64,000 nucleotides of DNA from Diadema antillarum (Eukaryota). A program made the position numbers and the translations under genes. A model generated the notes under the pieces. That model was not told the origin of the DNA. It ran no database searches and saw nothing but the letters and a program-made list of their open reading frames with translations. Of this stretch, positions 14,213 to 47,302 are shown in pieces; position 1 is the first letter of the stretch, and each line of letters begins with the position of its first letter. The stretch lies in contig NW_027271016.1 of assembly GCF_040938485.1 (NCBI RefSeq), forward strand, positions 1,844,436 to 1,908,435. Reading direction: 5' to 3'.

Positions 14213-14478
14213 TTAGCACTCGAGGACTACGTGCTGTTCTGCAGAAGGCAAGTCGTCTATAAGCCTCCGCGCCAATGCTACCAGCGGTGGCTCCAGGCTT
14301 TCCATCCACTGCTCTCCCTTTGCAAGACTCGCCGAGATCGTCGGCTCGAGATCGTGGAGCTCACCCAGCCTCCGCTGACGACGAATAGCGGTGATCAACT
14401 CGGCGAGGAAGAGCATGACCAACAGGGTAGCAACCAGTATCTTGTGAAGAGACTCATTTACCGCTGTGCTGTTATCAT
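14213..14478 (-). CDS. PARP4: PARP4 terminal coding exon (C-terminal MVP-interaction-like region, TAA stop at 14213..14215)
   Basis: Acceptor aacttttag|AT. The translation (N)DNSTAVNESLHKILVATLLVMLFLAELITAIRRQRRLGELHDLEPTISASLAKGEQWMESLEPPLVALARRLIDDLPSAEQHVVLEC* aligns to the human PARP4 C-terminus GRECLLDLIATMLVLQFIRTRLEKEG...AFEAIKQASEWVRRTEGQYP...LELGNDWDSATKQLLG. It starts in phase 1, joining the previous exon. Confidence 0.75.
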
Positions 14479-14563
14479 CTAAAAGTTAAAAAAAAAAGAT
14501 TATACATCATTTCCAGTAAAACTGACATTCTGTGTCGCGAGTCACAATTATCGCAGAGGCTTT

Positions 14564-14564
<1 letters not shown>

Positions 14565-14609
<45 letters not shown>

Positions 14610-14612
14610 GAA
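14565..14612. repeat. (CAA)n microsatellite
   Basis: caacaacaacaa x16. Confidence 0.9.
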
Positions 14613-14639
14613 GCACATTAGTACTCAAACAAATTATAT

Positions 14640-16160
14640 ATCAAATTGCTGGATCCACTTACTCACATATTCAACCTTTCCATACTGTCTGGAAAATGTC
14701 CCAATTCTTTAAAGATTGCTAAGGTAAACCCAGTGTTTAAGAAAGATGATTCTTGTCAAATTAGTAATTATAGACCAATTTCTATTCTTCCTAGTATTTC
14801 CAAAATTCTTGAAAAAATGATATATGATAGGTTTTATAAATTTTTGCATGATCATGCAGTTTTGAATTTACATCAATATGGTTTCCGAAAGAATTATTCT
14901 ACAGATTTGGCTTTGGTCCAGTTGTATGATCAAATTACAAACGCAATGGCAAATAGAAAACATGTTATAGGAGTTTTTATGGATTTATCTAAGGCGTTTG
15001 ATACGTTACAACATGATATTTTACTTAAAAAGTTACAGTTTTATGGTGTTCGCGGTGTTGCACTCTCGTGGTTTAGGGACTATGTATCATGTAGACAGCA
15101 ATATGTTATACATGATGACATGTCGTCAAATATTTTACCGATAAAATGTGGTGTGCCCCAGGGCTCAATATTAGCCCCCCTTCTCTTTTTGTTATATATC
15201 AATGATATTGTTAATTCGTCGTCTATATTAACATTTATGTTATGCCGATAACACGAATATTTTTTATTCCCACGATAATATAGAAACGTTGGTATCTACA
15301 CTTAATGCAGAGTTACCAAATGTATCAAACTGGTTTAAGAATAATAAATTATCACTTAGTATTGATAAAACAAATTATATTTATTTTAAGCATATGAAAA
15401 CTCACACAGATGATCTTGTAGATAATATTAGGATTGATAATGTATTTCTTGAACGTAAAAGTTCTATTAAGTTTTTAGGCATTTTTATTGATTAAAACCT
15501 AACCTGGAATGAACATATACGTTATGTTACAACCTGTATTTCTAGAAATATAGGTGTTCTTTCAAAGATGAAAAGTTATCTTCCTGAACATACTCTTTTT
15601 ATGCTTTACAATATTCTTTAATCCTACCATATATTATGTATTGCAATCTAGTGTGGAGTACAAGTTCAAAAACTAAACTCAACCCTATTTATTTACTACA
15701 AAAGAAAGCCGTTCGCATCTGTACTGGATCACAATACTTAGCCCACACCAGTTCACTTTTTTATCAGTTAAAAACACTGAATATATTTGATATAAATACA
15801 TTACATTCTTTGCTTTTTATGTTTAAGTATTTGAACAACTTACTTCCAAACATTTTTCACGATTTCTTTAAACTGAATTATACCGTTCATTCATATCCCA
15901 CTCGTAATTCGCAAAATGTTCATTTAGTAAATCCCAGATTATTAATTGCACAAAAATCTATAAGACATGATGGACATGAATACACTCCCAGATTATGTTA
16001 AATCATGTAAAACTTTATATTCTTTCAAGGATAGATTGAAAACTACATTACTGTCAATTTACAATCTATGAATATAGCATTTGAATATTTATTTTGTTTG
16101 GTTTGATCACATTTCTTTTCCTGTAAATTGGATTTAAAACTACAATAAATATACGCAATG
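14640..16160 (+). mobile_element. Degenerate CR1/L2/Jockey-type LINE 3' portion (RT and C-terminal domain, frameshifted, internal stops)
   Basis: ORF 14646..15251 has RT blocks ..NYRPISILP.., GFRKNYST, FMDLSKAFDTLQH and GVPQGSILAPLLFLLYINDI. YADN(T) appears in a shifted frame at ~15241. ORFs 15289..15495 and 15636..16001 continue the C-terminal domain. It lies just downstream of the PARP4 stop. Confidence 0.8.
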
Positions 16161-16654
16161 TTTCTGTGTCTATCATTTCATTTCATTCCCATTATCTTCA
16201 GCATCACCACTATCACTTTCATCTTCATTATCACATTTTTCTTCATCATTACCCTGAAAACATCATCATACATCATCATCATCATATCTCACGTTACTCT
16301 TATTCGTATCTATGCACTAGGAATATAAAAAACATAATGTATTTACAGTGTTTAATATTTTGTAGTATTTCTCCATTCCGCAAACAATATAATGTTTTGT
16401 GTATTATGTAGATAGGTCCCTGGGGTGCCACGTGCTCAAGCTTTTGCTTATAGTGGCAGTCCTTCTTCCGCATAATTTCTCAGATAATTATTTGGAAAAT
16501 TGGTAATACGATTTATAATTTGTTAATGAAATTAATTTACACAACGATTTTCCTTCTTTGAATCATATACTTGTAATCTGCTTACTGATATTCCATGTGA
16601 TATTACTGAAAATAATTTTGATTTATGTATGAAATTGTGTTGGAAGAATAATAA

Positions 16655-16748
16655 ATCAAACAAACAAACAAACAACAACAACAACAACAACAACAATAAT
16701 GTCCGGAAACTTCTCCGGTTACATATGTACCCTATTCAATTTTGTGCT

Positions 16749-16785
<37 letters not shown>
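16655..16785. repeat. Compound microsatellite (CAAA)n(CAA)n ... (GT)n
   Basis: caaacaaacaaacaacaacaacaacaacaacaa, then tgtgtgtgtgtgtgtgtgtgtgtgtg. Confidence 0.9.
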
Positions 16786-16954
16786 TGGCTGGCAATCTCT
16801 GGACTACCTTTAACCATCTGCTTTGTGTGCCCGGGTTGATGAGGTTGAAAAAGCAATAATATTATGATTTTCCCTTTACCATCCAATAATAACGGACAAT
16901 GAATAGGTATAATACATAATCTGATAATAACGGGTAAAAACAGGAGATACTCAC

Positions 16955-17027
16955 TTATCTTTGAGACGAGTGTCTCGATGTTCCCCGAAAAGATCTCGTA
17001 GACTGCACTAAGTTCCCAGTATCCAGC
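16955..17027 (-). CDS. PARP4: PARP4 penultimate coding exon
   Basis: Acceptor tctttcttcag|GCT and donor ATAA|gtgagt. The translation AGYWELSAVYEIFSGNIETLVSKI aligns to the human segment TEDGFWKLTPELGLILNLNTNGLHSFLKQKG. It runs phase 0 to phase 1, consistent with both neighbours. Confidence 0.7.
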
Positions 17028-17107
17028 CTGAAGAAAGACAAAAGTCCATCAATGATATAGTATTGTTACTTTAATCATGGGCTGCACGTTGAGTAAACTA
17101 TTATCTA

Positions 17108-17162
17108 AAAACAAACAAACAAACAAACAAACAAACAAACAAACAAACAAACAAACAAACAA
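17108..17162. repeat. (CAAA)n microsatellite
   Basis: caaacaaacaaa x~13. Confidence 0.9.
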
Positions 17163-18509
17163 CATCCTCCTAAGAAATACATGACAAGGCCGGCTCCTGT
17201 ATAGGTATACAATGGCCCTTGCTTTAAGTGCAGATTGGCTTAGATAAAATCCTTAGCTTTGCACATACACACTGTCCTTAAAGCCTCTGGCAGAGAAAGG
17301 GTTAAATATGACCAAAAATACGCAATAAAGATGCATTTTTCATGATTTTCGTGCGTGGATGGATGCCATGTTTTTCTTTCATCTCTCTGCACCCCCCCCC
17401 CCCCCCCGGGGCAAAAGTATTTTGTGCCCCGTAGGATGAAAGCACGTTGCATTCACATGCAATGTGAAACTCATTGTCAAAGACCTGTTATGTTATTTCT
17501 ACATTATTGATAGTATGGGGAAGAAAGAAGGTACTAGTACGTCAGACAAATTAAACCAACAGAAATTGAATTTACCATACGGTAATTGCTGAAATCATAT
17601 CAATCCGACTTCAAGGGCAATGAGAATGATATTCTTTCCAGTCGAACCTCCCCCTCCCCCTCCCCCTCGATCTCTCTCTCCCGATCATCACATACATAGG
17701 AAACCCTGCATCACTAACCATCAAAAAAACTCGCTAGGCATGGATTTTTAGTTTAAAAACAGATTCCGAAAGAGCAACCCCAAGCTTTAAAATGATGCAT
17801 TACTGAATGCAAATAAACTCTCCTAACCTATCTAAATAATGGAAAGAAAGTACACATCCTGGAATGGAGCTTACTGAGATGGGAGACCTTGAATTTAAGG
17901 GTCTATTCAAGAGTTTTGATAATCTAACCAAGCCGTACTCTGTGTTACAAACCGCACAAAATACAGGGTGTAAAACCCCAAGGCAAGCACAATGAAGGGA
18001 TTATCAAATTAAGCTGAAAATTTTCTCACTCTTTTAACATATTCTACTCAATACCACTGTAAACTTTGAAAGCAGTAGCATTATCTTTTTGAAAGTTCTT
18101 AGAGTTGAAAGTAAAGAGCGTGTACGGGTTTCTATGAACTTACAAGGAGCCTCTGAAACATATCTTATCACATTTCTCAGTGGCGGATCCAGAGGGGTGG
18201 GATCCACCGGGCTTTTTAGTGAAGAAATAAAAAAAAAAATGGGGGGGGGGGGGTTGCGTGCGCCCCCTTTAATTTAAAAAAATATATGGAATTCCTGGAT
18301 CCGCCCCTGCTTCTACTAAAAAAAAAGTGTTCTAGAAAAACACAACTTAAAATTCGTTTCATGATCCCAAACTTCCACTTTATGTAAAATAAGGGTTCTC
18401 TTTAAGAAAATACATAAACTGAAAACTGACTAGGTTCATCCATTTCACCCATTTTGAGTCCTCACGTGGAATCTTGACATGCGACTTTTTGTGATGCATG
18501 CGGTCACAG

Positions 18510-18595
18510 AACCTCTCTCTCTCTCTCTCTTACACTCACACACGCATACACGTACACGCATACAAACACACACACACACACGCACACACACACTT
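18510..18595. repeat. (CT)n then (CA)n-rich microsatellite
   Basis: ctctctctctctctct..cacacacgcatacacgtacacgcatacaaacacacacacacacgcacacacacac. Confidence 0.85.
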
Positions 18596-18784: not shown

Positions 18785-18794
18785 GTAACACACA

Positions 18795-18841
<47 letters not shown>

Positions 18842-18869: not shown

Positions 18870-20137
18870 ACTGCTCTGCCGGTGCAAAATCCTGGTGACG
18901 TCCTCGGCGCTCAGCTGCTTTCGGCGGACAGTGAAAGGAAACCAAAGCGCGGAGACCTCTCGCTCTGGCTTCCTCTTGGGTTCTTCCTCTCCTCTAGAGT
19001 AAGAATCTTCCAGAAGATATAAATCATCGGCGGCGGCTGCCTTATCATCCAAAGCAGCAAACATCATGTCTTCTGCCACTGTTACTCGTGAGGGCAATCC
19101 ACTCTCAGCTAGTTCTCGCGTAGGCTTCTCATACTCCTCAATGGGTTCCCAGTACTCCTCCTCATCATCCTCACTCTCCTCATAGTATGACATACCTCTT
19201 ATGCCTTGTGTTTCTAGAAGACCCCCAGCATACGGTACATCACCTATTCTATCACGGAGTAATTTTTCTCTTCTGCCTTCGTCATCTCGTTCTGCTACCA
19301 GCGAATGTGGTAGTTGTCTCCGTGTAGAAGAAGTTAATAGAGGCGGCGGCGGAGGCGGCGGCGCCGGCGGTGGCGGCGCTATCATCGCGGCGGGGATGTC
19401 ATCACCCCCCTCCGCTATGAAATATGTTGACTCATCAAATGCGGGGGGAGGGGGCGGTGTTGGTTGCTTGGTCGATCTCTTCATGAGTTGCTCCGGCTGT
19501 GGCGGTGGCAATCCACCTGCTGGTGTTGGCGCTGGTGGCACCGCCCCTGGTAATCGCCTTGGCTCTACATATCCGAGGTAACGGGACCCGTATCCGAGCG
19601 ATGGTACTGGTGGTGGTGGTGGTGGTGGCACCGCTCCTGCGTCTGATGTTCGTTTTCGTAAAGGAAGCCGGCTCGGCAAATCTAGCCCAGATTTGAGGCT
19701 CTTGTCAAAGGCGCTGAATTGCGCGGCGCTGTCAGGAAGGCGGTCGGATTTCTCCTCCAGATCGTGAAGTCTACTCCCTCTTTCACGCAGTTCACTGGCA
19801 TCAGTGGGGATATCTATATCGCGAAAACTCGCGGGAATTTCACGTTGCTTCTTTTTCATTGGCTTCGGCTTCCTTTTCTTTTTCTTTTTTGATTTCCAGA
19901 AAGAAAATGACGGCAGCCCCAGTGCGAATCCCCGTTTTATCACTGCCCGTTTACGTGTGTCCATCTTTAGACTATCGGTTTTCAAATAATCCCTCTCTAT
20001 ATCTATCGACATGTCAATCGCCATGGATCGAAGGCGAGCTATCTCGTCATCTAAGTCAGTAAGTGGTGTGGGAAGTGGTTTGGGCGTTGGTTTGGGCCGT
20101 GGTATCATAGGTGTCACTGGCACTTGAGTAGCCTCGT
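18870..20137 (-). CDS. PARP4: PARP4 large proline-rich exon (422 codons)
   Basis: Acceptor ccttattgcag|AC in phase 1 and donor AGT|gtaaga in phase 0. The continuous ORF (track 18852..20123) reads ..KKKKKRKPKPMKKKQREIP..PPPPPPPVPSLGYGSRY..PPPPAPPPPPPPLL..EESEDDEEEYWEP... It occupies the position of the large low-complexity P/S-rich exon of human PARP4 between the vWA tail and the MVP-binding C-terminus. Confidence 0.65.
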
Positions 20138-20652: not shown

Positions 20653-21349
20653 TTAGCACGATACCATGACTTCTATTAGAAATAAATTACTGATACACGT
20701 ACTATGTTTTGAAGAAACCTATCTCAAATAATAAATGAGCCCTTTCTGCAATGATACTGCATTCATGGGCCTGTTATTTTTTTTTCTCGTCAAAATCTGA
20801 AATAAAAATCGACCCTTTCCATAACTGGGCCATCCACTAATGGGGTCAATACCTGGACTTCCCGGATGCACAGCTTGTGGTTGACCCTTCGTCATGACGT
20901 CAGACAGTCTGCAAAAATGAATACCAACAGCATGTGATTACATGATTGCATAAGAAAATATACGATAGCAAAATAAGATGCAGAAATTGCGCAAGTTGAT
21001 AACCTTTAGATTTAACTACATTATACTACGAGGAGACTGTGTTGTTTTTTTCTCACTTTGATAGTCAGGGCCGAGAAACAATTGATTTAAAGGCTGACAA
21101 AACAAGAATTTCATCGTAAATTTTCCACAAATCGCAGTGAAAGTTCTTCATTGTAGTTGTGAAATTCTATCATTCTAAAAATAAGTAAACCAGTTGTAAA
21201 CACTAACATGAAACCAACCAACTTTGATCACTAAGAAAAGATAAACTGATAGGGTTATCACTTACTTCATGTTAGCGTAGTGTGTCTCTATTTTATCAAC
21301 AATACTGAAGCAGAACTGAATCATTCATTGGCCTTAGCGGAAATTAGAT

Positions 21350-21600
21350 GCCGATTGAAAATGACTTTTAAACATTTGAACGAATTTTACATGGACGCAC
21401 TAAACAAAATGAAATAAAAATTCTTTAAAGTCTACTTACACTTTAGAAAACTGCTTAGTTCTCTTTTGCAATCCCTGATGACGATTGAAAAGGACTTTTA
21501 AACATGTGAATGTACTTAATATGAACGCATTTGAAAGCGGTTTTGAAGTTTACTTACACTTTAGAAAACTGCTTAGTTCTGTTTTCCAGTCCCTCAGAAT
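21350..21600. repeat. Tandem repeat, ~125-bp unit x2
   Basis: gattgaaaa.gacttttaaacat.tgaa.g.a.tt.a.atg.acgca... tttacttacactttagaaaactgcttagttct.ttttc.a.tccct occurs twice in tandem. Confidence 0.8.
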
Positions 21601-22439
21601 CATCATCTAGTTTTCATGCGTTTCCATGAGATGTAATACCAGTCAAACACAAATCATAATAGAAAAACAACAACAACAACAGCTGTGAATTATCCACCCA
21701 AGGGGGTTATTCATTACTCTTGTAAACCTGCCTACATATAAATTGATAAACGTTGCTTCTAAAACTTTGGATTGAACTTAATAGCATTTATTTGATTTTA
21801 TCAAATTTCATTTGAAACATGATTTAACCTCAGGTTGATAATTAACCTAATGTTCATCCACCTAAAGATAAGGCATAATACAGTGTATACATTTTGCAAA
21901 TTATATCGTACAACAATTTGTAAGAAGTACAATACAAAGTACATGTACGAATGAATGTGATAGATAATGAGAGAAATAATGCATAATTTGCCATGATGAA
22001 AAAAGTAAATTATGGCGATGGGAAAAAAGTGATCTATCCTGAAAAGCGGAGCTTGTAAGACTTGGATTATGCACTCGAAAAACAACAAATGCCAATAACA
22101 TTTATATACATATCCTATTTGTGTACGTTTTTCACTTGGGTTGATTTAATTCAACATATTGATTTGGCAAATGACCATGCTAATGCTACAATTTCCATTT
22201 TTGTCTATTTGGGGGGTTTCATTTTACATCTGAGAAGATGGCTGAATAGCCCATGTTCAGCTGCACTAGCTGGTCTACCGTGAGATCCAATTGGATGTTT
22301 TCCAATAACCCAGTTATTTTGAACATTAATTTCACGTGTATATGTATATCTACATCTATTGTTGCATACGTTGTATTTTTTCCCCTTAAACTTTTATCAA
22401 CCAAAATGTGTTATTGAAAATGAAATCTCTTTTGATAAC

Positions 22440-22735
22440 TGGATTGAATTCATTTCAAATTGAACTCTCTAAAAAAATGAGTGAAAATATTCACTCTTAT
22501 AGGAGTGAATACAAAAAAGAGTGAATTTAGAGTGAAATTGGAGTGAATTTTGAGTGAAAATGCTTATTTTCACTGATTTTGGAGTGACCTCAGGGATCAC
22601 TCCAAGATTTAGGAGTGATCCCTGAGGTCACTCCAAAACGAGTGAAAATGAACATTTTCACTCAAAATTCACTCCAATTTCACTCTAAATTCACTCTTTT
22701 TTGTATTCACTCCTTTAAGGGTGAATATTTTCACT

Positions 22736-22791
<56 letters not shown>

Positions 22792-23414: not shown

Positions 23415-23484
23415 CGCTCACAACTGGGGGCGTAGCTACAGCAGGTCGGAGCCACTCCATCGCCTGAACTGCGTCACCTTTGAC
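23415..23484 (-). CDS. PARP4: Putative small PARP4 exon (23 codons plus 1 nt)
   Basis: Strong acceptor cacgttacag|GTC and donor AGCG|gtaaga. The translation VKGDAVQAMEWLRPAVATPPVVS(D) starts in phase 0 and ends in phase 1. It supplies exactly the phase needed between the flanking exons (24664..24813 ends in phase 0; the large exon starts in phase 1). Similarity to human PARP4 is weak. Confidence 0.5.
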
Positions 23485-24099
23485 CTGTAACGTGAACTTA
23501 GAGATCGCCAGGCAGCACTGGTATCGAACAGAAATGGAGATTTACAACAGCATGAGGCAATGAAAGTGCAACGAATGACGCCATGTACGGTTTGAATGGA
23601 AAAGTAAGATAGGAAGATAAGAGAGGAGATGTGTGTAGATTACACAAAATCTCAGATTTTTGTGTTTAGCGTGTGACAATAATTAGAGAGGGGAAGGGGA
23701 TGGTGATACAGCAAACATTTATCTGCAAAACGTTATTTATAAACCTCAGGTCACTACGCATAGAGGTAAAGATAATCATATCCTTAAAACATGAATGGTG
23801 TTCAGAGCAGGATTTCGATAGAAATACTGCGTCTGTCTTATACCAGATATCGTATTCTATTTACCACTGATTATGGTAATAATAAAAGTAGAGCAAGAAT
23901 ATAAAATACAAATTCATTCAGCGTATTGACGTTGATTGTGATAATGACGTGGCAATAGGATTAATTGTAGTAGTAGCAGATCTCCTAGGGGCACCAGTGT
24001 AGCGATTATGATGTAAAAAATGATAGCAGTAACTTTGATGAAGATGATAACAATGACAAAGATGCTACATGTACGTACTACTACAACGGTCGCACGTTA

Positions 24100-24440
24100 C
24101 GAGACCGACACCCACGAGTCATACAGCTCACAAGTCATACAGCCCATGAGTTATACAGCTCACGTTTCATACAGCCCAATAGTTAGACACTATGCTAACA
24201 AGGCCCACGAGACCGACACATTAAGCCCCCTGCTGAATCTGTCGAACTCGTGGGTTGTTTTTACCTAGTGTCGAACTCATGGACTGTATGACTCGTGAGC
24301 TGTATGACTCATGGGCTGTATGACTCGCGAGCTGTATGACTCATGGACCTGTTTTCAGTGTCGAACTCGTGGGCTGTATGACTCGTGAGCTGTATGACTC
24401 ATGGACCTCTTTTCAATGTCGAACTCGTGGGCTGTATGAC
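24100..24440. mobile_element. Foldback element built from 16-bp subrepeats (gagtcatacagc / gctgtatgactc)
   Basis: Left block 24100..24200 contains cacgagtcatacagctcacaagtcatacagcccatgagttatacagctcacg. Right block 24240..24440 contains tandem ctgtatgactcgtgagctgtatgactcatgggctgtatgactcgcgag.. in inverted orientation. Confidence 0.7.
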
Positions 24441-24663: not shown

Positions 24664-24813
24664 CGTATGAAACAGGTGGTGAAAGTTGGGAAGGTTGTCT
24701 CGAGCGGCGTTGAGGGCGCCATGATAACACTTCTCGGCAGACGCATAGGAGAAATGAGACTGCGCAGCCCTGGCGCGTTTCAACAGGCGGCCAATCATCC
24801 CCTCTGTTGATTC
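24664..24813 (-). CDS. PARP4: Putative PARP4 exon (50 codons)
   Basis: Acceptor ctacggacag|GAA and donor ACG|gtgagg. The translation ESTEGMIGRLLKRARAAQSHFSYASAEKCYHGALNAARDNLPNFHHLFHT runs phase 0 to phase 0, consistent with the upstream exon. It lies in the region corresponding to the basic RLSKRKHRKIPFSKRK segment of human PARP4, with weak similarity. Confidence 0.5.
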
Positions 24814-25746: not shown

Positions 25747-25854
25747 CGCTTGTACATCGGCCACTTCCTGCCAGGGCAGTGACGTTAGGTCATCGCTGCT
25801 GATCATGTGTATTAGCTCAGCAACGTTAGGGGGTTCCCCTCTCTCCTGCTTCTC
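25747..25854 (-). CDS. PARP4: PARP4 exon (36 codons)
   Basis: Acceptor cctccag|GAG and donor GCG|gtaagt. The translation EKQERGEPPNVAELIHMISSDDLTSLPWQEVADVQA aligns to the human segment ENESPFPDIPKVSELIAKEDVDFLPYMSWQGEPQEAV. Confidence 0.7.
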
Positions 25855-26516: not shown

Positions 26517-26699
26517 ACTGTCTCGCTCCTCGACCGCAACAAAGCTGGTAAAGGGTGTGACTATCGATAGTGCGATACTGAGCTCGGTCAGAAATGGCTT
26601 GAGATCATACATGCGTGTCTCGTGGGCCATGTGATCGCGATCAAAGGATCCGATCTCCCACTCGCGAACGAGGGCTCGGGCTGCTAAACGGTGTATCAT
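26517..26699 (-). CDS. PARP4: PARP4 exon (61 codons, vWA-domain tail)
   Basis: Acceptor taattcag|ATG and donor AGT|gtaagc. The translation MIHRLAARALVREWEIGSFDRDHMAHETRMYDLKPFLTELSIALSIVTPFTSFVAVEERDS aligns to the human segment MIHKLAARALIRDYEDGILHENETSHEMKKQTLKSLIIKLSKENSLITQFTSFVAVEKRDE. Confidence 0.85.
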
Positions 26700-27389: not shown

Positions 27390-27470
27390 CAAACTGTCGT
27401 CGTGGTCGGCAGACGTCGAGCTTATGGTTTCGCTGATAGTTTTCCCGTCCATTTCAGCTGACACGCTCAC
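27390..27470 (-). CDS. PARP4: PARP4 exon (27 codons)
   Basis: Acceptor tcggcag|GTG and donor TTG|gtaaga. The translation VSVSAEMDGKTISETISSTSADHDDSL lies in the position of the human segment LCALIQEKEFRTMVSTTELQKTTGT. Phase is 0 to 0. Confidence 0.65.
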
Positions 27471-28590: not shown

Positions 28591-28803
28591 CTCTTCCGCC
28601 TTTGGTCCTGTCGAGAAAAGAATGACCTTCGACCCCGTGAAGACCGACGACACCTGGGCTGGTATCTGCAACAGCTCTGCCTTTCGCTGTCCCTTTTCTG
28701 CCCCTACTGCACCGCCATCTTGTCCAGCGGATTCCGAAGTCCGCCATTTTGTCTGAACGGAGGTTACGGCCGGTTGTCGGCATCGACGTATCTGTGCAGC
28801 AAC
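28591..28803 (-). CDS. PARP4: PARP4 exon (71 codons)
   Basis: Acceptor accatgaaag|GTT and donor GAG|gtaact. The translation VAAQIRRCRQPAVTSVQTKWRTSESAGQDGGAVGAEKGQRKAELLQIPAQVSSVFTGSKVILFSTGPKAEE aligns to the human segment IEDQMTRLCSPSCHSVSVKWQQLNPDVPEALQAPAQVPSLFLNDRLLVYGFIPHCTQ. Confidence 0.75.
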
Positions 28804-29596: not shown

Positions 29597-29696
29597 CTTG
29601 CCTTCCCATTTTGACTTGAATTTCCCTTCGAACAAGTCAAAGGCCCCTCCAGTGACGTCTGCTAAGGCACGTAATAGGTGACGATTCCCCGTTGAA
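29597..29696 (-). CDS. PARP4: PARP4 exon (vWA-domain end)
   Basis: Acceptor ctctgttacag|T and donor AAG|gtatgg. The translation (S)STGNRHLLRALADVTGGAFDLFEGKFKSKWEGK aligns to the human segment GSTANRHVLRILSQCGAGVFEYFNAKSKHSWRKQ. Confidence 0.85.
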
Positions 29697-29820: not shown

Positions 29821-30091
29821 CTCACGCCAAACGTGAAAATCCTGTTCTCGTGTCGATGTTCGGCAGCGACGAGCAACGTGAACTTCTCGTTCGTCAGATG
29901 ACCGTCCGACACGAGGAAGACGTTACGCGTCCTGTTCTTCGCCGGCGGCAGCAGCGAGAGAGAACGCAGAGGGCGCCACGCTTCCGATCCGCCGCCGCCC
30001 ACAGATGACGAACTCCTTTCTATGAAGTCCACGGCCTCGTCAATCTGGTAGCGATGGTTGCGCATGACGCTCGGGAAAACCTCGGTAAAGT
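29821..30091 (-). CDS. PARP4: PARP4 exon (vWA domain)
   Basis: Acceptor tactttgacag|AC and donor GTGAG|gtgagg. The translation (D)FTEVFPSVMRNHRYQIDEAVDFIERSSSSVGGGGSEAWRPLRSLSLLPPAKNRTRNVFLVSDGHLTNEKFTLLVAAEHRHENRIFTFGV aligns to the human segment ..YLSLLYPARGSRNILLVSDGHLQDESLTLQLVKRSRPHTRLFACGIG. Confidence 0.85.
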
Positions 30092-30509: not shown

Positions 30510-30699
30510 CTGTACCGAATGCAATCACATTGAATTGGCTTTGGCTCGGCAACATCTCAAGGATCAGTTTGCTCAGCTTCTTGGCGTCCTCCTTCGGCTG
30601 CCCTTTCATAGACGTGGAACAATCAAGGAGCAGAACTACTTCCGGGTCAACAATGGGCACGAACGTCGGAAACTCGGGATAAAAGACTGCCATGCTGGC
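30510..30699 (-). CDS. PARP4: PARP4 exon (vWA domain MIDAS region)
   Basis: Acceptor tttccacag|GCC and donor ACAG|gtatgt. The translation ASMAVFYPEFPTFVPIVDPEVVLLLDCSTSMKGQPKEDAKKLSKLILEMLPSQSQFNVIAFGT aligns to the human segment ..ESEVIICLDCSSSMEGVTFLQAKQIALHALSLVGEKQKVNIIQFGTG, including the DxSxS metal-site motif. Confidence 0.85.
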
Positions 30700-31260
30700 C
30701 TGTGGAAATAAAACGATCATTATGAAGATAAGCCATTACAATTAACACTTTGATGCAAAGCACTTTCATTCAAGAAGCACTGCTGCCTTTTATTTACGAA
30801 TTATTCGTCAAACACTGTCGTGAGTTTCGGCTTTGAAATTGCTTTATTAGCTAAAACTAATTAACAACTCTAGAGAGAAAATAGGACTATGAACCGCTGA
30901 CGGTTGGCAGGCAAGAAAGGAAAAGAACTGGACTGAGGGATAGAAAGTGCAGGCTTCAGTCCTTGAATTTATCTTAGAACTTAGACGATTCATGTCAAAT
31001 CTCTCGGAAGGAATATTCCCTTTCTGCTTTCTCACACCATTCATCATTGTAACGATCTTTTGAATGCATGTAATGTTTCTCAAAAAGTAATTGATAAAGA
31101 ATATGCTTTCAAGCATTGTTTGGGTTTGTAGGTAAACTACAGTAGGAATCATGCGACTATTATCAGTGATGATGTGCATGAGAATTTTGACACAAAGTTT
31201 GTTATGAGAAGAACCAAAGTTCGCAAATGGATACGATCGAACTCTGGCCAAGGAACTTAC

Positions 31261-31395
31261 GTAAGAATCTCGGTTCGGGTCGTATTCTTGCCACATGCGA
31301 GGCCGGTGCGGATCAGCCACGCCCACAAGTAATTGAAAACCATCGCCTAACTTAACGGAGTCCTGTAGAGTGACAGTTGCTTTGCTCCCTCCAAT
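31261..31395 (-). CDS. PARP4: PARP4 exon (45 codons, between VIT and vWA)
   Basis: Acceptor tttttttcttcag|ATT and donor TAC|gtaagt. The translation IGGSKATVTLQDSVKLGDGFQLLVGVADPHRPRMWQEYDPNRDSY aligns to the human segment EGSSLDSSGFSLHIGLSAAYLPRMWVEKHPEKESEAC. Confidence 0.85.
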
Positions 31396-32296: not shown

Positions 32297-32378
32297 CTTA
32301 GCCTTGATTTGATGTGTTGGCGACTCCAGGCGTTGAATATCCGACGCCATCTTGATACTGAGTTGTAGAGATTCCTTC
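32297..32378 (-). CDS. PARP4: PARP4 small exon (1 nt plus 27 codons)
   Basis: Acceptor ctccaaacgcag|G and donor AAG|gtattc. The translation (R)KESLQLSIKMASDIQRLESPTHQIKAK aligns to the human segment KQSFSLTMSIEMPYVIEFIFSDTHELKQK. Its phase joins VIT exon 33269..33480 (ends in phase 2) to exon 31261..31395 (starts in phase 0). Confidence 0.8.
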
Positions 32379-33268: not shown

Positions 33269-33480
33269 CTCTCATTCTCCCGCCCACTCACTCCGGAAAC
33301 CGCCTGCTGGTCAGCGGTCAGCTGACTGCCTTGGATCTCCTTTCGTATCCACGGGGCCACGCTACCGAGCAGGGAGAAGACCGCGTGATCGTCCTCCGCC
33401 CCGAGCTCGGTGACGTACGTGATCTGGATGACCACGGTGGCGAGGGAGGGCAGGTTGCCGATGCTCACGGAGAAGACGTT
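33269..33480 (-). CDS. PARP4: PARP4 exon (VIT domain, second part)
   Basis: Acceptor tatggacag|AAC and donor GAGAG|gtgaat. The translation NVFSVSIGNLPSLATVVIQITYVTELGAEDDHAVFSLLGSVAPWIRKEIQGSQLTADQQAVSGVSGRENE aligns to the human segment DVFTVSVGNLPPKAKVLIKITYITELSILGTVGVFFMPATVAPWQQDKALNENLQD. Confidence 0.85.
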
Positions 33481-34074: not shown

Positions 34075-34275
34075 CGACGCTTCCTCTTGCATCAAGTAAG
34101 CCCCATGACCAGCTCGGACTGCAGCCTGGAATTCCTCTTTTGCCCGTTCTTTGGTCTTCACCTGACCGATCACGTGTTTCCCGTTAATGTAAGCTTCGAA
34201 GCCGCAGACGGCCGCCCGGTCGTCGAGCGGGAACACGTAACGGGCTTCCGAAACGTCACCGTCGGACTTCGTGCT
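34075..34275 (-). CDS. PARP4: PARP4 exon (VIT domain, first part; 67 codons)
   Basis: Acceptor gtgtaccag|AGC and donor TCG|gttagt. The translation STKSDGDVSEARYVFPLDDRAAVCGFEAYINGKHVIGQVKTKERAKEEFQAAVRAGHGAYLMQEEAS aligns to the human segment ..AKYIFPLDDKAAVCGFEAFINGKHIVGEIKEKEEAQQEYLEAVTQGHGAYLMSQDA. Confidence 0.9.
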
Positions 34276-34594
34276 CTGGTACACTTGTAAGACTGTTATC
34301 TGTAGCCGGACAAGGGGGAAATGACAATATCTCTTAGCCTACACACTGAACTGCTCTCGCATTGCTGCCACTTGTCAATTCGATACAATACATTATTGGT
34401 AATGCTGACTAGACGCACGTGCCTTTCTTATAAACAGATGATTAGGATACGGTTATTTTTCTCTCTCTTCTTCTTCTTCTTCCTCCTCCTCCTCCTCCTT
34501 CTCATTCTTTTTCTTCTCTTTATCTTCCTTTCGCGTTTTTGTTATTCTCCTTTATTTTTTCTTTCCTTCTTCTATCTCATCATCCTGGGTATAC

Positions 34595-34728
34595 CTTGGC
34601 CGCAAGATCAGTTATGTGTCCACGAATGTGAACTTCTCGCAGGTCTACGCACTCTCGTCCATTAGCCGCTACGAGTCCGGCGTCTATTTGGCTGACGGGG
34701 TCCCTGCAGCCTTGTACGTCCAGGAGAT
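34595..34728 (-). CDS. PARP4: PARP4 exon (linker between catalytic and VIT domains)
   Basis: Acceptor ttactttccag|AT and donor AAG|gtatac. The translation (D)LLDVQGCRDPVSQIDAGLVAANGRECVDLREVHIRGHITDLAAK aligns to the human segment ..GLQDASGNLVPLEDVHIKGRIIDTVAQV. It starts in phase 1, joining exon 35607..35754. Confidence 0.8.
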
Positions 34729-35255: not shown

Positions 35256-35486
35256 GTAAATGCAAGTTGGTGAGTTCTTTATAGTTGGAACAATGTATTT
35301 ATATGTGTTCAATGGATATGAATTTCTAATTGTTGTGAAACTCACGTAAACTCACATACAATTCAACCTCTTGTTGCCACGCATGATTAATACAGATCAT
35401 TATATTTATTTATCTATCTATTTCTTCACCTTCCTTTTGTTTTTTCCTTCTTCTCTACCTCCTCTTCCTCCTCCTCATCCTCCTTC

Positions 35487-35500
35487 CCATCATCATCATC

Positions 35501-35532
<32 letters not shown>

Positions 35533-35550
35533 CATCATCATCTATCATCA
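35487..35550. repeat. (CAT)n microsatellite
   Basis: catcatcatcatcatcatcatcaccatcatcatcat... The spurious poly-His ORF 35371..35814 arises from it. Confidence 0.9.
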
Positions 35551-35606
35551 TCATCAGTATATTCATATCTAATCTCAGCAACATTTGAAAGCTTAGTGCA
35601 ACATAC

Positions 35607-35754
35607 CAATCTTCTCGTACGGTTCTTCATCTTCCACGTCATCTTCTTCTTGAAAGTCGAAACCGTCCACCATATCATCGTCCCCTTCGATGCTGAACTC
35701 GACGAGATATCGGATGCACTGCTGCCCGGTGGAATACACAACGTACTCGTCCTC
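35607..35754 (-). CDS. PARP4: PARP4 exon (end of PARP catalytic domain)
   Basis: Acceptor ccgttctttgcag|GAG and donor ATTG|gtatgt. The translation EDEYVVYSTGQQCIRYLVEFSIEGDDDMVDGFDFQEEDDVEDEEPYEKI aligns to the human segment EDDEFVVYKTNQVKMKYIIKFSMPGDQIKDFHPSDHTELEEYRPEF. Confidence 0.85.
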
Positions 35755-36260: not shown

Positions 36261-36445
36261 CTGTAAATTCTGAAGGTCTATCCACTGCCGCCCGCACTCC
36301 ATGCGTGCTGTTGTATCCCTCCGGAGCTTCTTTCAATGTCATGTCCACTTCATAGCAGTCTTTGACGGATCCTAGCGCCACTTTGTTGACGAACATCATC
36401 CGAGTTCTCGAGAAGTAGCCATTTTTGCAGTACTGGATGCAAGTG
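36261..36445 (-). CDS. PARP4: PARP4 exon (PARP catalytic domain)
   Basis: Acceptor ttccttgtag|C and donor ACA|gtaaaa. The translation (S)TCIQYCKNGYFSRTRMMFVNKVALGSVKDCYEVDMTLKEAPEGYNSTHGVRAAVDRPSEFT aligns to the human segment TSIKYSHPGETDGTRLLLICDVALGKCMDLHEKDFSLTEAPPGYDSVHGVSQTASVTTDF. Confidence 0.85.
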
Positions 36446-37702: not shown

Positions 37703-37801
37703 CTCGTCCTGTCTCCAAAGTAAAGACCAGCTCCGAGCAGTCCTTCGTCTCGCCTCGATCCGTCGAACATTTCCACAACGATTTTCGGCATAAGCAAGCC
37801 C
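37703..37801 (-). CDS. PARP4: PARP4 exon (PARP catalytic, NAD-binding G-x-G-x-YF motif)
   Basis: Acceptor ccactgcag|G and donor ACGAG|gttgga. The translation (R)GLLMPKIVVEMFDGSRRDEGLLGAGLYFGDRT aligns to the human segment CRGLLLPKVVEDRGVQRTDVGNLGSGIYFSDSL. Confidence 0.85.
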
Positions 37802-38680: not shown

Positions 38681-38818
38681 CTTGATAGGATGCCAAGGAT
38701 GCTGGCTGGCTTGGAGGCGTGGAAGAGCAGTCTGTCGTTGCCTATCCCACGGTCGAATCCCTCCTCTTCGGGCGGCCTACTCACCGCGTAGATGCGAAGT
38801 GTGTTGATGGTCGTTGCC
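38681..38818 (-). CDS. PARP4: PARP4 exon (PARP catalytic, HGS-motif region)
   Basis: Acceptor cgttttatag|G and donor TCAAG|gtcaga. The translation (R)ATTINTLRIYAVSRPPEEEGFDRGIGNDRLLFHASKPASILGILS aligns to the human segment VDVLQIFRVGRVNETTEFLSKLGNVRPLLHGSPVQNIVGILC. Confidence 0.85.
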
Positions 38819-39673
38819 CTATAAAACGAAGGAAGGATATTCAAAAATAAAAAGGACGGATGACTTATTTGGAACGAATGGAGTAAAAATGGACTAAAAA
38901 TAAAACTCCTCAGAATGGCACAATGAATGTTGACAAAGAAGATGGGTATAGTTCATACGTCGGTCGGAAGTAAGTTGAACTTGATATATTCGGTGAAAGT
39001 TAAGGAGAGCATGGTATGTTATGGTATGGTATGGTTTATTAAATGAAATGTTCTCGCAGCCAAAAGGCTGAATTGCAACATTTGTTCACACAATACATAG
39101 TTGATTAAAAAAGAATGTATTTACAATTTTCGCAATTTCACAGAGAACGCAATTAACGGCAAGGAATTCTGTACCGGAATCTATTTCTGGCGATAACAAA
39201 TAGTGCGTTCTTCTGGAGTATTGGGTTTAGGAAGACAGCTCTACACCGTGTCCTGACTGCACACTAGCATCATATAGTTACGTAACATCCGGATACTGAG
39301 GCTATTGTTTGGAGCCATAACCACTTTCAGTTTCATTTGGCACGACAGAATCTTCAACAAATGAAAACATACAAAGTGCATAGGAAGTCCGTCTGTCACT
39401 GATATATTGTACGTCTATTTGCTAAAAAAAAAAAAAAAAAAAAAGTTGAATTGTCATTTGGCTCCAATATAGGCCTAACAGCTTTACACTTGTATTTGCA
39501 CCTGTTTGACTTATAACTGGCAAAATTTCTTGAACAAAACGTAATGGAAAATGTGTTTCACTGTTACCCAAACATTTCATTGTATCCTCAATTTGTTGGA
39601 GATGAAATAAAACAACTTGAAACTTGAACTTGAGGGTACATTGTTGGCGGAAGCATACTACTGGAGAGTTTAC

Positions 39674-39834
39674 CGAGGAACTGTGGAAAGCACAAGATCT
39701 CTAATCTTCTCGTGCTCCGGATGACCCGGTTCCAGGAACCGGATGTAGCATCTCAGCGCCTTGTACTTGGCCTGCGTCGTCGGCTGCTGCCGCCAGCCAG
39801 TTTCCTCGCTGATGTACACGATATCCCGGATCAT
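39674..39834 (-). CDS. PARP4: PARP4 exon (PARP regulatory/helical domain end)
   Basis: Acceptor gcggttttag|ATG and donor CCTCG|gtaaac. The translation MIRDIVYISEETGWRQQPTTQAKYKALRCYIRFLEPGHPEHEKIRDLVLSTVP aligns to the human segment LIRDMVNVCETNLSKPNPPSLAKYRALRCKIEHVEQNTEEFLRVRKEVLQN. Confidence 0.85.
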
Positions 39835-41653: not shown

Positions 41654-41923
41654 CTGACAGAGATCCAGTTTGAGAGCCACGTTGCTCTTGCGCAGCAGCG
41701 AACTGCGCATTTCCTCCTTGTGCGGTATTAAGTCGTAGAATTCCTTTTCCAGCTCTTCCAGTTTCTCCTCCTCCTCCTCCTCTTCGCGGTCTGCATCCGA
41801 GGATTCTTCTCTCCCTTGTAGGTCCTCGTCATCCTCGTCGTCCCCTTCTTTTCTCTCATCGTATGGACGTCGTCGCTGCAGAAGGTGCCAAAGCTGATGA
41901 AGGATGGCTTCGGCCTTGGCAAC
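41654..41923 (-). CDS. PARP4: PARP4 exon (PARP helical domain, 90 codons)
   Basis: Acceptor cttcttcctag|GTT and donor CAG|gttagc. The translation VAKAEAILHQLWHLLQRRRPYDERKEGDDEDDEDLQGREESSDADREEEEEEKLEELEKEFYDLIPHKEEMRSSLLRKSNVALKLDLCQ aligns to the human segment VSKAEGILLLVKAALKNGETAEQLQKMMTEFYRLIPHKGTMPKEVNLGLLAKKADLCQ. An acidic insertion is present. Confidence 0.85.
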
Positions 41924-42484: not shown

Positions 42485-42628
42485 CTGACCCGGAAGTATG
42501 GTCTCAACCCTGACCGAGAGATTTTCGCGGAGAGTTCCCATGGCCTCTTTCCAGACGTTGTCTACGAGTTGGGCCACCTCGTCCGATAGCGACTCTGAAG
42601 GCGAGTAAGTTTCCCGGTACAACAAGGT
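42485..42628 (-). CDS. PARP4: PARP4 exon (48 codons)
   Basis: Acceptor cccatatag|ACC and donor CAG|gtaaat. The translation TLLYRETYSPSESLSDEVAQLVDNVWKEAMGTLRENLSVRVETILPGQ aligns to the human segment ALLLEEVMNSSTLSQEVSDLVEMIWAEALGHLEHMLLKPVNRISLNDV. Confidence 0.8.
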
Positions 42629-43381: not shown

Positions 43382-43459
43382 ATTAACAAGAGACTTTTCC
43401 GAAGTGTCATTTGGGTGAAGTTCAAAGTACATGTCCACGCTCTCCATGAACAAAGTAAT
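43382..43459 (-). CDS. PARP4: PARP4 exon (26 codons)
   Basis: Acceptor tttcttttcagtcgacctaag|ATT and donor AAT|gtgtgc. The translation ITLFMESVDMYFELHPNDTSEKSLVN aligns to the human segment GFLLREHFTPEATQLASEQLQA. It is phase 0 to 0. An alternative acceptor 9 nt upstream (ttttcag|TCG) would break the frame. Confidence 0.65.
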
Positions 43460-43743
43460 CTTAGGTCGACTGAAAAGAAACAAAACCAAACAAAACGAAG
43501 CAAAACAAAATAGAGTCAAACGAAACAAATAAAATGAAGGAAAGTTTCTTTAAATCTGTTTTGAATTGAAAAAAAAAGTGTAGTGCAACTATACACATTG
43601 ACTTGTATTGATTCACAAAACCTGGATTGTTGCTCATTTTCCCAAAAGAATATCTAAATACGTGTCATATAATTTCCTATAATATTTCTACTATTTCCCT
43701 TTAGAGTGCTTGGTACGCCCACAAATAAGAAACAACAACCAAC

Positions 43744-43747
<4 letters not shown>

Positions 43748-43788
<41 letters not shown>

Positions 43789-43790
43789 CT
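43748..43790. repeat. (CA)n microsatellite
   Basis: acacacacacacacacacacacacacacacacacacacac. Confidence 0.95.
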
Positions 43791-45903
43791 TTCAGACCAA
43801 CATTCCGCCAGTGATATCATTACGTGATTGTGTCAATCACTGCTGAAGTACTTACATGATTATCGAAAGACATTTGAATGCACCTTCCCCTATAAACCGC
43901 CCATAACTTGCATGTTTCCCTGCATTGGCTTCTGTTAATCACATTAGTAACGTGGAAACATGCAAGTTATGCTCAGTCTATGGGAAGGTGAATTCTACTG
44001 TCTTTTGTTAATCATGCAATGATTGACAGATGACGTCACTCCTATAGAAGAATCTTGGTAGGGAATTAGGGTTTTCGAAAGTTTATCTCCGGTAATCTGA
44101 AGAAAAACAGTAGACAAATTATTTCTAAATATATGGCACGTAATAAGATATGTATTGGCCACGTAGGTGATGTTGAGGGTATCATTAATCAACGCAAATC
44201 GCCACCCATTTGCATTACATAGTTCCTTTAAGAAGGTCTTATTTTGTTGTTTTCAGTTTTGTTCGTTTTTGTATATGTGATGAAGTTATGCCCCACGTTC
44301 TCTTACACTTCATTTTTTTTTCTCTCCAAATGTCCTCTTTTGAAATGCTTTCAAAACAAAAAAGAAAAATTCATGTCCATTTCACCAAGTTGTTGGATAA
44401 TATAGTGCAGTAATAACCTCGCCGAAGTGAATCTAAAGGGGGAAGGTGTTGGAGTTGGTAAATCATCAACCAAAGACATAATTATTATTATAATGAAGTT
44501 CCTATTTGCGTTCAAACCAACGTGAGATACTAATAATTACAGGACGTCATCACTTCACTTTGTATGTGCACGTGGGTGCGATTACGACCAACATCCCTGT
44601 TTAGTGAGAACCTGCGAAGCCTTTTAAATGAATCCGATTAATTGCTTGTAATCCACGCGTTATATTTTATACCCTTTTAATCAAAGTTATACAGAGTGAC
44701 AGTGCAGTTTTAGGAGCGGCATTTGAGGATGTACATAATTATCAGTGGCCAATTCAAGTAGCATATCATTTTCAAAGTTTTCAATGATTACACTTAGACT
44801 TTGCTTTTATTTGTTCGTTTTCTTTATCTTTTATTTTTTTGGAGGGAGCAGATTCCTGAACAAGAAGACAATCGCAGAAGGAAAAACAAATTGAGGAAAC
44901 ACAGAAAGAGATTTTTTATGTTTCATTTTTTCAAACTGTGCAAGGAATAGTCACTTTTCAATACGTTATTTTGGTCTCATGGTACTTTCCTTGCAGTCCT
45001 TGACAGTAATGGTCTCGAATAGCTCCACTTTATATAGTAAAGATCACTGTCAGAATTGAATCAGAAGTGCATGCTTTGTTTACATTCAACAAAATACAAA
45101 AATAAATGAAACTAATGTAGCAACAAACGTCTGGAATTTCGTAAATGGCAGGATTGTTTCCCAATTAATGTGCACGTTTAATTCATAAAGCGCATAAGAC
45201 CATACCACACACCATTATCTCTTTCATGGGCAGGTAGGCCCTTATTTTGCTTGGATTGAGAAGTGTTTCGAAATATTAACGATATAGGAATGACCTATAC
45301 TGTACTATCTGATTATTGTAGCTGATTATTTGTCATAAGTTGATTTAAATCATGATTTATATCACGATAGGTTGCGGGTTCGCTCATCAAGGGCTCATTG
45401 AATAATAAAGTACAAATAACCCCTAAGAACTTATTTTTAATGAGTTAACCACTAAAGATGACCCCTGTCTTATGACACGTGTTTTCCTTGAACTTAAAAT
45501 CATGATGAAAACGGGGCGTTTTCTTCCTCGTCTTTTGAGGATTAAATACTATATTCTGAGCAATTGATGGCCTGTGGTGGGCAATTGATTAGCAAGGATA
45601 TATGGTACACGCATTATTAGTGTGATTATAAAGAGTAGTTGTTAAAATTATCATTAACATGATCATAATCGATATCATCATTATTGTTATATTGTATCAT
45701 TGCAATCAGCTTCGTTGTCGACTATTGTCATCAACATACTTTTGTATAATGGTTAATATCGTTTTCAATATGACTATTACAGCTGGTTGTCTCTGTTGTT
45801 GTTTTCGTTGGCTTGCTGTCATTGTTGTTTTTGTTTTTGTAGTTGTTGATGTTGATGTTTATGTTGTTGTTGTTATCATTGCGATTTCTTTTACGCGCCC
45901 CAC

Positions 45904-46071
45904 CTTTCTGAGAGCCTCGGATCCGATCCATCTCGAACTGATCTCACCCGATATGGGCTGCATCGGAACGTCTGCGTCCGTGGCCCGCCTCTTGTAGATG
46001 TCCTCGTAGATGCGGAGGGCTTCCTCGGCCGTGGCCGCATAGTGGCACTCGCGCTCCCCGCTCTCCTCGTT
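45904..46071 (-). CDS. PARP4: PARP4 exon 2 (56 codons, region after BRCT)
   Basis: Acceptor catgttcactggcag|AAC and donor AAG|gtgggg. The translation NEESGERECHYAATAEEALRIYEDIYKRRATDADVPMQPISGEISSRWIGSEALRK aligns to the human segment ETRRQFAIKKTSEDASEYFENYIEELKKQGF. An earlier possible donor TCGG|gtgaga at 45948 would break the phase with the next exon, so the longer form is preferred. Confidence 0.65.
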
Positions 46072-46417
46072 CTGCCAGTGAACATGCACACACAGAAATA
46101 AACAAATAAACAAGAGTGTTTCCAAGGTGACGGGATATTATTTGACTTTAATAAGGGGAATCGCGCTGACCGACGAATGTTGGTTTTTCGCCACTCGATC
46201 ACTCACCCCACCCCCATTATTTGTCACCCAACTCATGTTTGACGGCCCTATTACTACCACGAGGGCGATATTAGAGGGATTGGGGGGTCATGATAGGGCT
46301 AGGCTCATGTCTACAGACGTGCCAACTATATAAGGATAGTGATTCATAACTTCCCCTTTATTTGTAAAAGGATAGTTCATCATACAAATGCGTTGCCTTT
46401 CATATAAACACGCACAG

Positions 46418-46472
46418 CACACGCACACACACACACACAAACACACACACAAACACACACACACACACAAGC
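46418..46472. repeat. (CA)n microsatellite
   Basis: cacacgcacacacacacacacaaacacacacacaaacacacacacacacacaa. Confidence 0.9.
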
Positions 46473-46989
46473 CAATTAAAGCTTAAGTTCGGGATGTAGA
46501 TAATAAGTTTAATCTAAAGTATAAGAGCGATACACAGCTTGTGTAAACATTCTTCAGTCACAGTGCAATGTTGCTGCACTGCAGTACATGTAATAAGGAC
46601 CTTTATGACCTGCTGCGTTAACTGTGAACAAAACATGTAAGAAAACCCTCAATATCTTCTTGCAGGGTATCAACATTGATTCTTCAAAACAAAATATCTA
46701 TTTCCCCATTCTCGTAATTAATGTAGAAGAACGCTCTGTGGCGAAAAGACAGGACCTATTTTTACAATCAACCAAGTAATTGAACAGCGAAGGTGGCATA
46801 AATGCGGTATAATTGCCGATAAATGACATTTCTTCTTTTACATTAGCAAGTAGCCTAATCACAGCTTATATTGCTTGTACTCAGTGCTCAAGATTGGCAA
46901 TATTCCTAAACATGAAACAATAAACAAGTCACTACCGATATGATCTTCACCAAGAAGTTTGCGTAATTTTATGAGTACAGCGCGCACTT

Positions 46990-47302
46990 TAAATGAGTCA
47001 TGTCCGGTTCAACTTCCAACGAACAGAGAAAGCAATTACTATATACCGTAGCACTTGCAGTCGATGTCAGATGCGTGACGACTTTAAAGGGGAAGTCACT
47101 GACTGTAGAAATGACGTCGGCACTTCCGTCACAATCATCTCCCGACGGTTGGGGGGCAACAGAGGAAGACGAGCTCGTGGCTGATGCTGACGAAACATTT
47201 CGCTGAATCTCGACGGTAAACAGGCGAGTGTTCCCCGGAGCTGACGAGTGTGTTTCCTTTGAGAAGGAAAATGTCAGAGAGTGCATGTATTATTGACTTC
47301 AT
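46990..47302 (-). CDS. PARP4: PARP4 5' coding region (BRCT domain; ATG at 47300..47302 on the minus strand). Internal structure unresolved
   Basis: Minus-strand ATG gives MKSIIHALSDIFLLKGNTLVSSGEHSPVYRRDSAKCFVSISHELVFL, which aligns to the human segment MVMGIFANCIFCLKVKYLP..GGKFSFSLNPQCTHIILDNADVL. A second frame downstream gives ..SADVISTVSDFPFKVVTHLTSTASATVYSNCFLCSLEVEPD, which aligns to ..ADVLSQYQLNSIQKNHVHIANPDFIWKSIREKRLLDV. The two pieces are offset by one frame, so a micro-intron, a real frameshift or an assembly error lies between them. Confidence 0.4.

Follow-up and report, generated by a model that had tools for sequence, protein, structure and literature searches.

Introduction

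In human PARP4, the vault PARP (VPARP), the BRCT domain is the main module for binding vault RNA (PMC10711553, PMC12212138), and the WGR domain is degenerate, with F-L-L in place of W-G-R (PMC10711553). The contact residues of its MVP-interaction (MINT) domain are S1614, K1618, Q1682 and R1689, of which K1618 is salt-bridged to D214 of MVP (PMC12280208). Purified vaults of the sea urchin S. purpuratus showed bands of ~200 kDa, and "clear sequence homologs" of VPARP had already been seen in the genome of this species (Stewart et al. 2005, PMC550661). Here we describe a PARP4-like gene of the sea urchin Diadema antillarum (Echinoidea, Diadematoida), located in a stretch of 64,000 nucleotides (nt) of RefSeq assembly GCF_040938485.1 (contig NW_027271016.1, positions 1,844,436 to 1,908,435 of the forward strand). 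This whole stretch is called the window, and all positions below are counted from its first letter. An earlier note, made from the sequence alone, had described PARP4 at 14213-47302 as complete, with about 27 exons. The PARP4 homology was borne out by our analysis, and the map of the gene was corrected: the locus very probably is an intact PARP4 (vault PARP) homologue with the exon structure and domain content described below.

Structure of the gene

The PARP4-like gene occupies the minus strand between 14213 and 49790 (span 35,578 bp) and has 30 coding exons, three more than the ~27 first counted. The coding model of 5508 nt starts with the ATG at 49790 and ends with a TAA at 14215-14213, which is the stop that had been proposed for the gene end, and its predicted product has 1835 amino acids and a mass of 204.3 kDa. 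All 30 exons are open, without frameshift, so the in-frame stop codons that were named as a possible refutation do not occur. Canonical GT-AG borders were found at 29/29 introns, which measure 124-3275 nt, and the phases are consistent throughout, as the earlier note had claimed for its own chain. The translation of the 30 exons is residue-for-residue identical to XP_071487843.1 (our label P0111), which carries the NCBI product name PARP4-like. The gene is therefore already annotated in RefSeq and the PARP4 locus is not a new discovery; with sea urchin VPARP homologues reported in 2005 (PMC550661), its discovery value is small, and the contribution lies in the corrected map, with 30 minus-strand exons and the start codon at 49790.

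In a six-frame search, the five long motifs quoted in the earlier note were all recovered exactly, each once and on the minus strand: EFYDLIPHK at 41743, YVFPLDDRAAVCGFEAYINGK at 34239, DCSTS at 30624, FTSFVAVEERD at 26552 and LVATLLVMLF at 14437. Coordinates accordingly decrease from the 5' to the 3' end of the gene, and each motif falls within an exon of the final model. Searches by tblastn with PARP4-like fragments likewise gave collinear minus-strand matches from ~47.2 kb down to 28.6 kb.

The draft gene was built with a splice-graph dynamic program that combined AG/GT candidates and open frames with codon log-odds (trained on tblastn-supported codons) and generic splice-site matrices. Before curation, this de novo draft had 27 exons and a product of 1902 amino acids. 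When it was compared with full-length human PARP4 (11jf_P) by phmmer on PDB sequences, the match (E = 3.8e-158) fell into four segments, whose separating gaps exposed wrong draft boundaries. The junctions were curated base by base, guided by the human and Lytechinus alignments, which shifted four acceptors and two donors. Judged against these alignments, the draft acceptors at 38893, 34822 and 29743 lay too far upstream and the donor at 31141 too far downstream, and they were rejected. Also discarded was a poly-Asp exon (35541-35459) that arose from the (GAT)n repeat of intron 11 and is missing from both the RefSeq protein and the human alignment. The (GAT/CAT)n microsatellite itself (35459-35556) is an open, phase-compatible and GT-AG-bounded pseudo-exon that the de novo gene finder accepted.

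The exon at 48148-48091 was added on a match to residues 23-39 of the L. pictus PARP4-like protein (P0030). It is entered in phase 2, and therefore one more coding exon is required upstream. This exon 1 is only 29 nt long and was not recovered by scoring of ATG, donor and codon usage. Together with exons 26 and 27 it is absent from the de novo draft, and all three were located by tblastn with a second D. antillarum PARP4-like protein, XP_071477881.1 (P0108, a cluster mate of P0111), which matches the last exon alone at 99% identity in a HMMER search. The start at 49790 is preceded by an in-frame stop 12 codons 5' of it, without another ATG in the interval, and the next coding exon after exon 1 is the one at 48148-48091, upstream of exon 3.

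The agreement of splice phases had been presented as strong evidence for the first model, which overrates it. Exons 26 and 27 measure 49 + 56 = 105 nt, and phase consistency is therefore blind to skipping them; the false poly-Asp exon was phase-compatible too. Phase-neutral exons that have been skipped, and a first exon that is false, thus escape a check by pairwise phase agreement.

Domain content of the predicted protein

From the N-terminus, the domain order is a putative WGR-like region (~residues 10-155), the helical regulatory domain, the ADP-ribosyltransferase (ART) domain, VIT, vWA, a Pro-rich stretch and a putative MINT-like domain. In a phmmer search with the final protein, urchin residues 253-1175 were aligned to human PARP4 residues 312-1213 in a single collinear stretch (E = 6.1e-187), which covers the helical, ART, VIT and vWA domains ahead of the C-terminal tail. 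Human PARP4 was the best solved-structure match, with 627 bits against 56 bits for PARP2 (forward search only), and the next families were far weaker (PARP2, E = 1.2e-14; ITIH4, E = 1.2e-08). The crystal construct of the human helical and ART domains (8sx1) covers urchin 252-513 at E = 1.1e-58, and this alignment places a helical domain directly N-terminal to the ART. Pfam, which had been proposed as a check of the assembled protein, gave PARP (PF00644, 78.5 bits against a cutoff of 26.7), VIT (PF08487, 111 bits, residues 566-678), VIT_2 (PF13757, 39.4 bits), VWA_3 (PF13768, 65.9 bits), VWA (PF00092, 37.4 bits) and VWA_2 (PF13519, 31.2 bits), all above their cutoffs; PARP_reg and BRCT, which were expected in the same check, did not reach theirs or did not appear, as discussed below.

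All exons lie on the minus strand. The linker helix and the beginning of the helical domain are encoded by exon 5 (42485-42628, 144 nt), and exon 6 (41654-41923, 270 nt) carries the helical (regulatory) domain with EFYDLIPHK and an acidic insert. The helical domain ends and the ART begins in exon 7 (39674-39834, 161 nt). The H-Y-E triad consists of H380, Y420 and E490, aligned to the human triad motifs. The catalytic histidine stands in F-H-A-S (38721-38719) in exon 8 (38681-38818, 138 nt); an HGS motif had been quoted at this site and is absent. The predicted G-x-G-LYF motif is present as G-A-G-LYF with the catalytic tyrosine in exon 9 (37703-37801, 99 nt). The ART continues through exon 10 (36262-36445, 184 nt) to exon 11 (35607-35754, 148 nt), where the catalytic glutamate is found in EDEYVVY.

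The VIT domain begins in exon 12 (34595-34728, 134 nt), has its core with YVFPLDDRAAVCGFEAYINGK in exon 13 (34075-34299, 225 nt) and ends in exon 14 (33269-33480, 212 nt). It is followed by exon 15 (32297-32378, 82 nt), aligned to human 790-808, and exon 16 (31261-31395, 135 nt). The vWA domain spans exon 17 (30510-30699, 190 nt), exon 18 (29821-30091, 271 nt) and exon 19 (29597-29696, 100 nt); the first of these holds the metal-ion-dependent adhesion site (MIDAS) motif D-x-S-x-S as D825-C-S827-T-S829. After exons 20 (28591-28803, 213 nt) and 21 (27390-27470, 81 nt), the FTSFVAVEERD motif lies in exon 22 (26517-26699, 183 nt), and the phmmer alignment to human PARP4 ends, at human residue 1213, in exon 23 (25747-25854, 108 nt).

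By analogy with the human enzyme, the urchin protein would carry out NAD+-dependent mono-ADP-ribosylation of targets, and its C-terminal domain would anchor the protein to MVP within the vault shell.

The N-terminal region

The earlier note had assigned a BRCT domain to the N-terminus, and none of our searches recovered one. Pfam at E <= 10 gave no BRCT on residues 1-203 or on the whole protein. In a phmmer search of residues 1-203 against PDB, the sole alignment was to human PARP4 206-282. Compared with human BRCT residues 1-100 (a query checked to be identical to PDB 11jf_P), the urchin N-terminus scored no better than shuffles (z = -0.49). Upstream of the gene, the minus-strand open stretches of at least 40 amino acids between 49791 and 60300 (10.5 kb), joined by X for the scan, contained no Pfam family, and tblastn with the human BRCT gave chance-level matches only. 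We conclude that echinoid PARP4-like proteins are without a recognisable BRCT domain.

Exon 1 (49762-49790, 29 nt) holds the true start ATG and encodes MAAVKKNLL plus 2 nt before a GTAAGT donor. The putative WGR-like region begins in exon 2 (48091-48148, 58 nt; acceptor ttccag, donor CAG/gtaaaa) and continues in exon 3 (47047-47256, 210 nt) with FPFKVVTHLTS. Exon 4 (45904-46071, 168 nt), found by tblastn with the L. pictus PARP4-like protein and XP_071477881.1, is predicted to encode the C-terminal strand and helix of this region. BLASTP aligned urchin 83-211 to human PARP4 181-301 (E = 9e-09), which sets FPFKVVTHLTS opposite human CPFLISSHFLL, with THLTS against SHFLL. The exon carrying FPFKVVTHL, which had been read as BRCT, aligns to human residues 181-192, in the WGR stretch with F-L-L, and the BRCT assignment is wrong. 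Provisionally, we take this exon to code for a portion of a WGR-like domain.

For the N-terminal homologue of L. variegatus, AlphaFold modelling from a 5-row alignment that included the window exons gave a mean predicted local distance difference test (pLDDT) score of only 43.5. For this low-pLDDT model, the top 13 Foldseek matches were all WGR chains of PARP1 or PARP2 (E 6e-3 to 7e-2), with no BRCT among them. Pfam WGR gave no match on residues 1-203.

The PARP4-like models of Lytechinus pictus and L. variegatus (LOC121412086, P0112) are ~60% identical to the Diadema protein. Both are truncated (491 and 212 amino acids, respectively), and their N-termini likewise lie shortly ahead of the WGR-like region and include no BRCT domain. 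Three echinoid models thus open at the WGR-like region without BRCT, unlike vertebrate PARP4.

The C-terminal region

Exons 24 (24664-24813, 150 nt) and 25 (23415-23517, 103 nt) are followed by the two short exons 26 (21558-21606, 49 nt, DDDSEGLENRTKQFSK), found through the RefSeq protein, and 27 (20853-20908, 56 nt, LSDVMTKGQPQAVHPGSP). Between the vWA and the C-terminal domain, ~400 residues of Pro-rich low-complexity sequence are predicted. Exon 28 (18870-20137, 1268 nt) is rich in proline and in acidic low-complexity sequence and holds no Pfam family besides a chance-level Synaptobrevin match. Its 3' end opens the putative MINT-like domain, which continues in exon 29 (16955-17027, 73 nt, AGYWELSAVYEIFSGNIETLVSKI) and closes in exon 30 (14213-14478, 266 nt including the TAA) with LVATLLVMLF.

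The putative C-terminal domain of ~120 residues is weakly similar to the human MINT domain. With human 1521-1724 as the counterpart (a query checked against the PDB sequence), BLASTP gave E = 0.001 and 27% identity over 64 amino acids at the expected collinear position, and exon 29 was matched to human 1574-1636. A local alignment of the C-terminus reached z = 3.8, with 5/1000 shuffles matching or exceeding the observed score. A word-indexed protein search with the last 716 amino acids found no homologue; with a catalytic/VIT query, the same kind of search returned only fragments of <=581 amino acids. MINT family membership of the C-terminus is plausible but unproven because the alignment is weak; at 27% identity it is too unreliable for residue-level conclusions. 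Between its helices 4 and 5 the human MINT domain has a basic stretch, and the corresponding urchin loop has the sequence SKINDNSTAVNES. From homology we infer that the urchin protein resides in vaults, and the name "vault-particle PARP", which the earlier note had given it, is an inference of the same kind. The predicted 204 kDa compares with the ~200-kDa bands in S. purpuratus vaults (PMC550661).

A second PARP4-like copy

XP_071477881.1 is encoded on another contig of D. antillarum. It has 1813 amino acids and is 98.4% identical to the product of the window gene, with 29 substitutions and 22 gap columns. It is without the 21 amino acids GRREKLLRDRIGDVPYAGGLL (window ~19277-19215, exon 28) and without one Lys. 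We considered a retained or spliced intron as the source of the 21-residue difference and rejected it, as GT-AG borders are missing around these 63 nt in the window copy. The two copies, either haplotigs or recent duplicates, therefore differ by a genuine in-frame indel.

Alternative readings of the locus

The model of the earlier note, a complete gene of about 27 exons opening at an ATG at 47302 and coding for an N-terminal BRCT and an HGS motif, has most of the internal exon chain and every quoted long motif correct. Its ATG is, however, part of intron 2, with the acceptor of exon 3 (47256) following 46 nt downstream, and exons 1 and 2, which the model missed, lie upstream and are required to give the RefSeq protein exactly. 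With neither HGS in the protein nor a BRCT by Pfam or by comparison with shuffles, we regard this model as highly improbable. We give as little credence to the locus being a pseudogene or a redundant haplotig copy. The near-identical protein from the other contig, with its 21- and 1-residue indels, would fit such a copy, but the window gene has 30/30 exons open with canonical splice sites and no frameshift, and the 63-nt indel is in frame and not bordered by GT-AG. The divergence between the two copies is compatible with allelic haplotigs of a highly heterozygous species, and neither would thereby be a pseudogene.

Several results weigh against the reading as an intact vault PARP. Pfam PARP_reg scored 19.2 bits, under its cutoff of 26.8; no BRCT was found; the N-terminal model has a low pLDDT; and phmmer against human PARP4 gave no significant C-terminal stretch. 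In the weak C-terminal alignment K1618 falls on a gap and Q1682 on P (S1614 on T, R1689 on R), and the MVP residues that contact PARP4 are conserved in vertebrates only (PMC12280208). The locus could accordingly hold a true PARP4 homologue whose product does not dock in vaults through the vertebrate MINT-MVP interface, and is free in the cytoplasm or bound otherwise. The weak likeness of the C-terminus, the unaligned K1618, the SKINDNSTAVNES loop, the absence of the BRCT that binds vault RNA in human PARP4 and the restriction of the MVP contacts to vertebrates would all suit this possibility. On the other hand, the C-terminal domain stands in its expected collinear position and scores above shuffles, the predicted mass fits the bands that co-purify with S. 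purpuratus vaults (PMC550661), and residue-level claims are not safe on such an alignment. Taken together, this possibility seems unlikely, though it deserves to be kept in view. Somewhat more doubtful still is the wider proposal that echinoid PARP4 is without both the RNA-binding BRCT and the basic K1618-type MVP-docking patch, and that urchin vaults may recruit PARP4 by another interface or not at all. If true, this would bear on the proposal that PARP4 vault occupancy arose late, in vertebrates (PMC12280208). The preferred reading is that of an intact PARP4 homologue, to which vault residence is ascribed by homology.

Repeats and neighbouring elements

The introns had been said to host foldback elements, satellites and microsatellites. 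Two foldbacks are indeed present: one at 22471-22744 in intron 25, with arms of 133 nt that are 95% complementary around an 8-nt loop, and one at 24112-24346 in intron 24, with arms of 115 nt that are 82% complementary; this second foldback is composed of tandem units of 16/32 bp. The gene also contains numerous microsatellites and short tandem repeats, all of them intronic. The sole true satellite (274 bp x 7.0 copies, 91% matches) does not lie in an intron; it is located at 51890-53825, ~2.1 kb upstream of the PARP4 ATG. Candidates for the first exon that began with "MNATEPGRAERA..." came from units of this satellite, recurred and were set aside as spurious. An Rfam scan of the introns found no vault RNA and no other RNA gene.

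On the plus strand, exons of a DEG/ENaC-type channel at 1335-1601, 5618-5881 and 9285-9557 converge on the 3' end of PARP4. They matched Pfam ASC (PF00858) with 47.8, 43.3 and 21.8 bits, the third narrowly below the cutoff of 23.6 bits. A non-long-terminal-repeat (non-LTR) retrotransposon remnant (3580-5270, minus strand; zf-RVT 42.7 bits, RVT_1 26.2 bits and slightly below cutoff) is flanked by the first and second channel exons and is therefore probably intronic. At 147-211 on the minus strand, Rfam gave a tRNA match (43.3 bits, E = 7e-06) and ARAGORN made no tRNA call; the element may be a tRNA-derived short interspersed element or a pseudo-tRNA. At the other end of the window, an unbroken frame of 1229 amino acids on the plus strand (60314-64000) runs past the window end. 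This acidic, Ser/Thr-rich frame has no Pfam family and probably represents one giant exon from a gene next to PARP4 and transcribed divergently from it.

Comparison with known PARP and VIT-vWA proteins

PARP1, PARP2 and PARP3 have the HD-ART part (HD, helical domain) of their WGR-HD-ART core in common with the urchin protein, as seen in the PARP2 match, and going by the WGR fold matches the WGR part may be shared too. They are without VIT, vWA and MINT, and at the aligned positions their W-G-R is replaced in the urchin protein by L-T-S. The inter-alpha-trypsin inhibitor heavy chain ITIH4 (PDB 9c4f) has the VIT and vWA module in common with it. However, ITIH heavy chains are secreted and are without the PARP catalytic region. 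Membership of the ITIH family was rejected, since the urchin protein has the PARP catalytic domain and matches ITIH4 only at E = 1.2e-08.

Compared with human PARP4 (Q9UKK3; PDB 11jf, 9bw6, 9bw7, 8sx1), the urchin protein is without a detectable BRCT, has H-A-S where the human catalytic motif is H-G-S, carries an acidic insert in its helical domain and has a longer Pro-rich exon, and its MINT-like domain is ~27% identical over 64 amino acids, with the counterpart of K1618 unaligned. Human PARP4 has a collinear WGR-HD-ART-VIT-vWA order, followed by a disordered region and a C-terminal helical tail; the urchin protein follows it from HD to vWA and would do so in its putative WGR-like and C-terminal parts, and the H-Y-E triad, the MIDAS D-x-S-x-S motif and the FTSFVAVE motif are common to both proteins.

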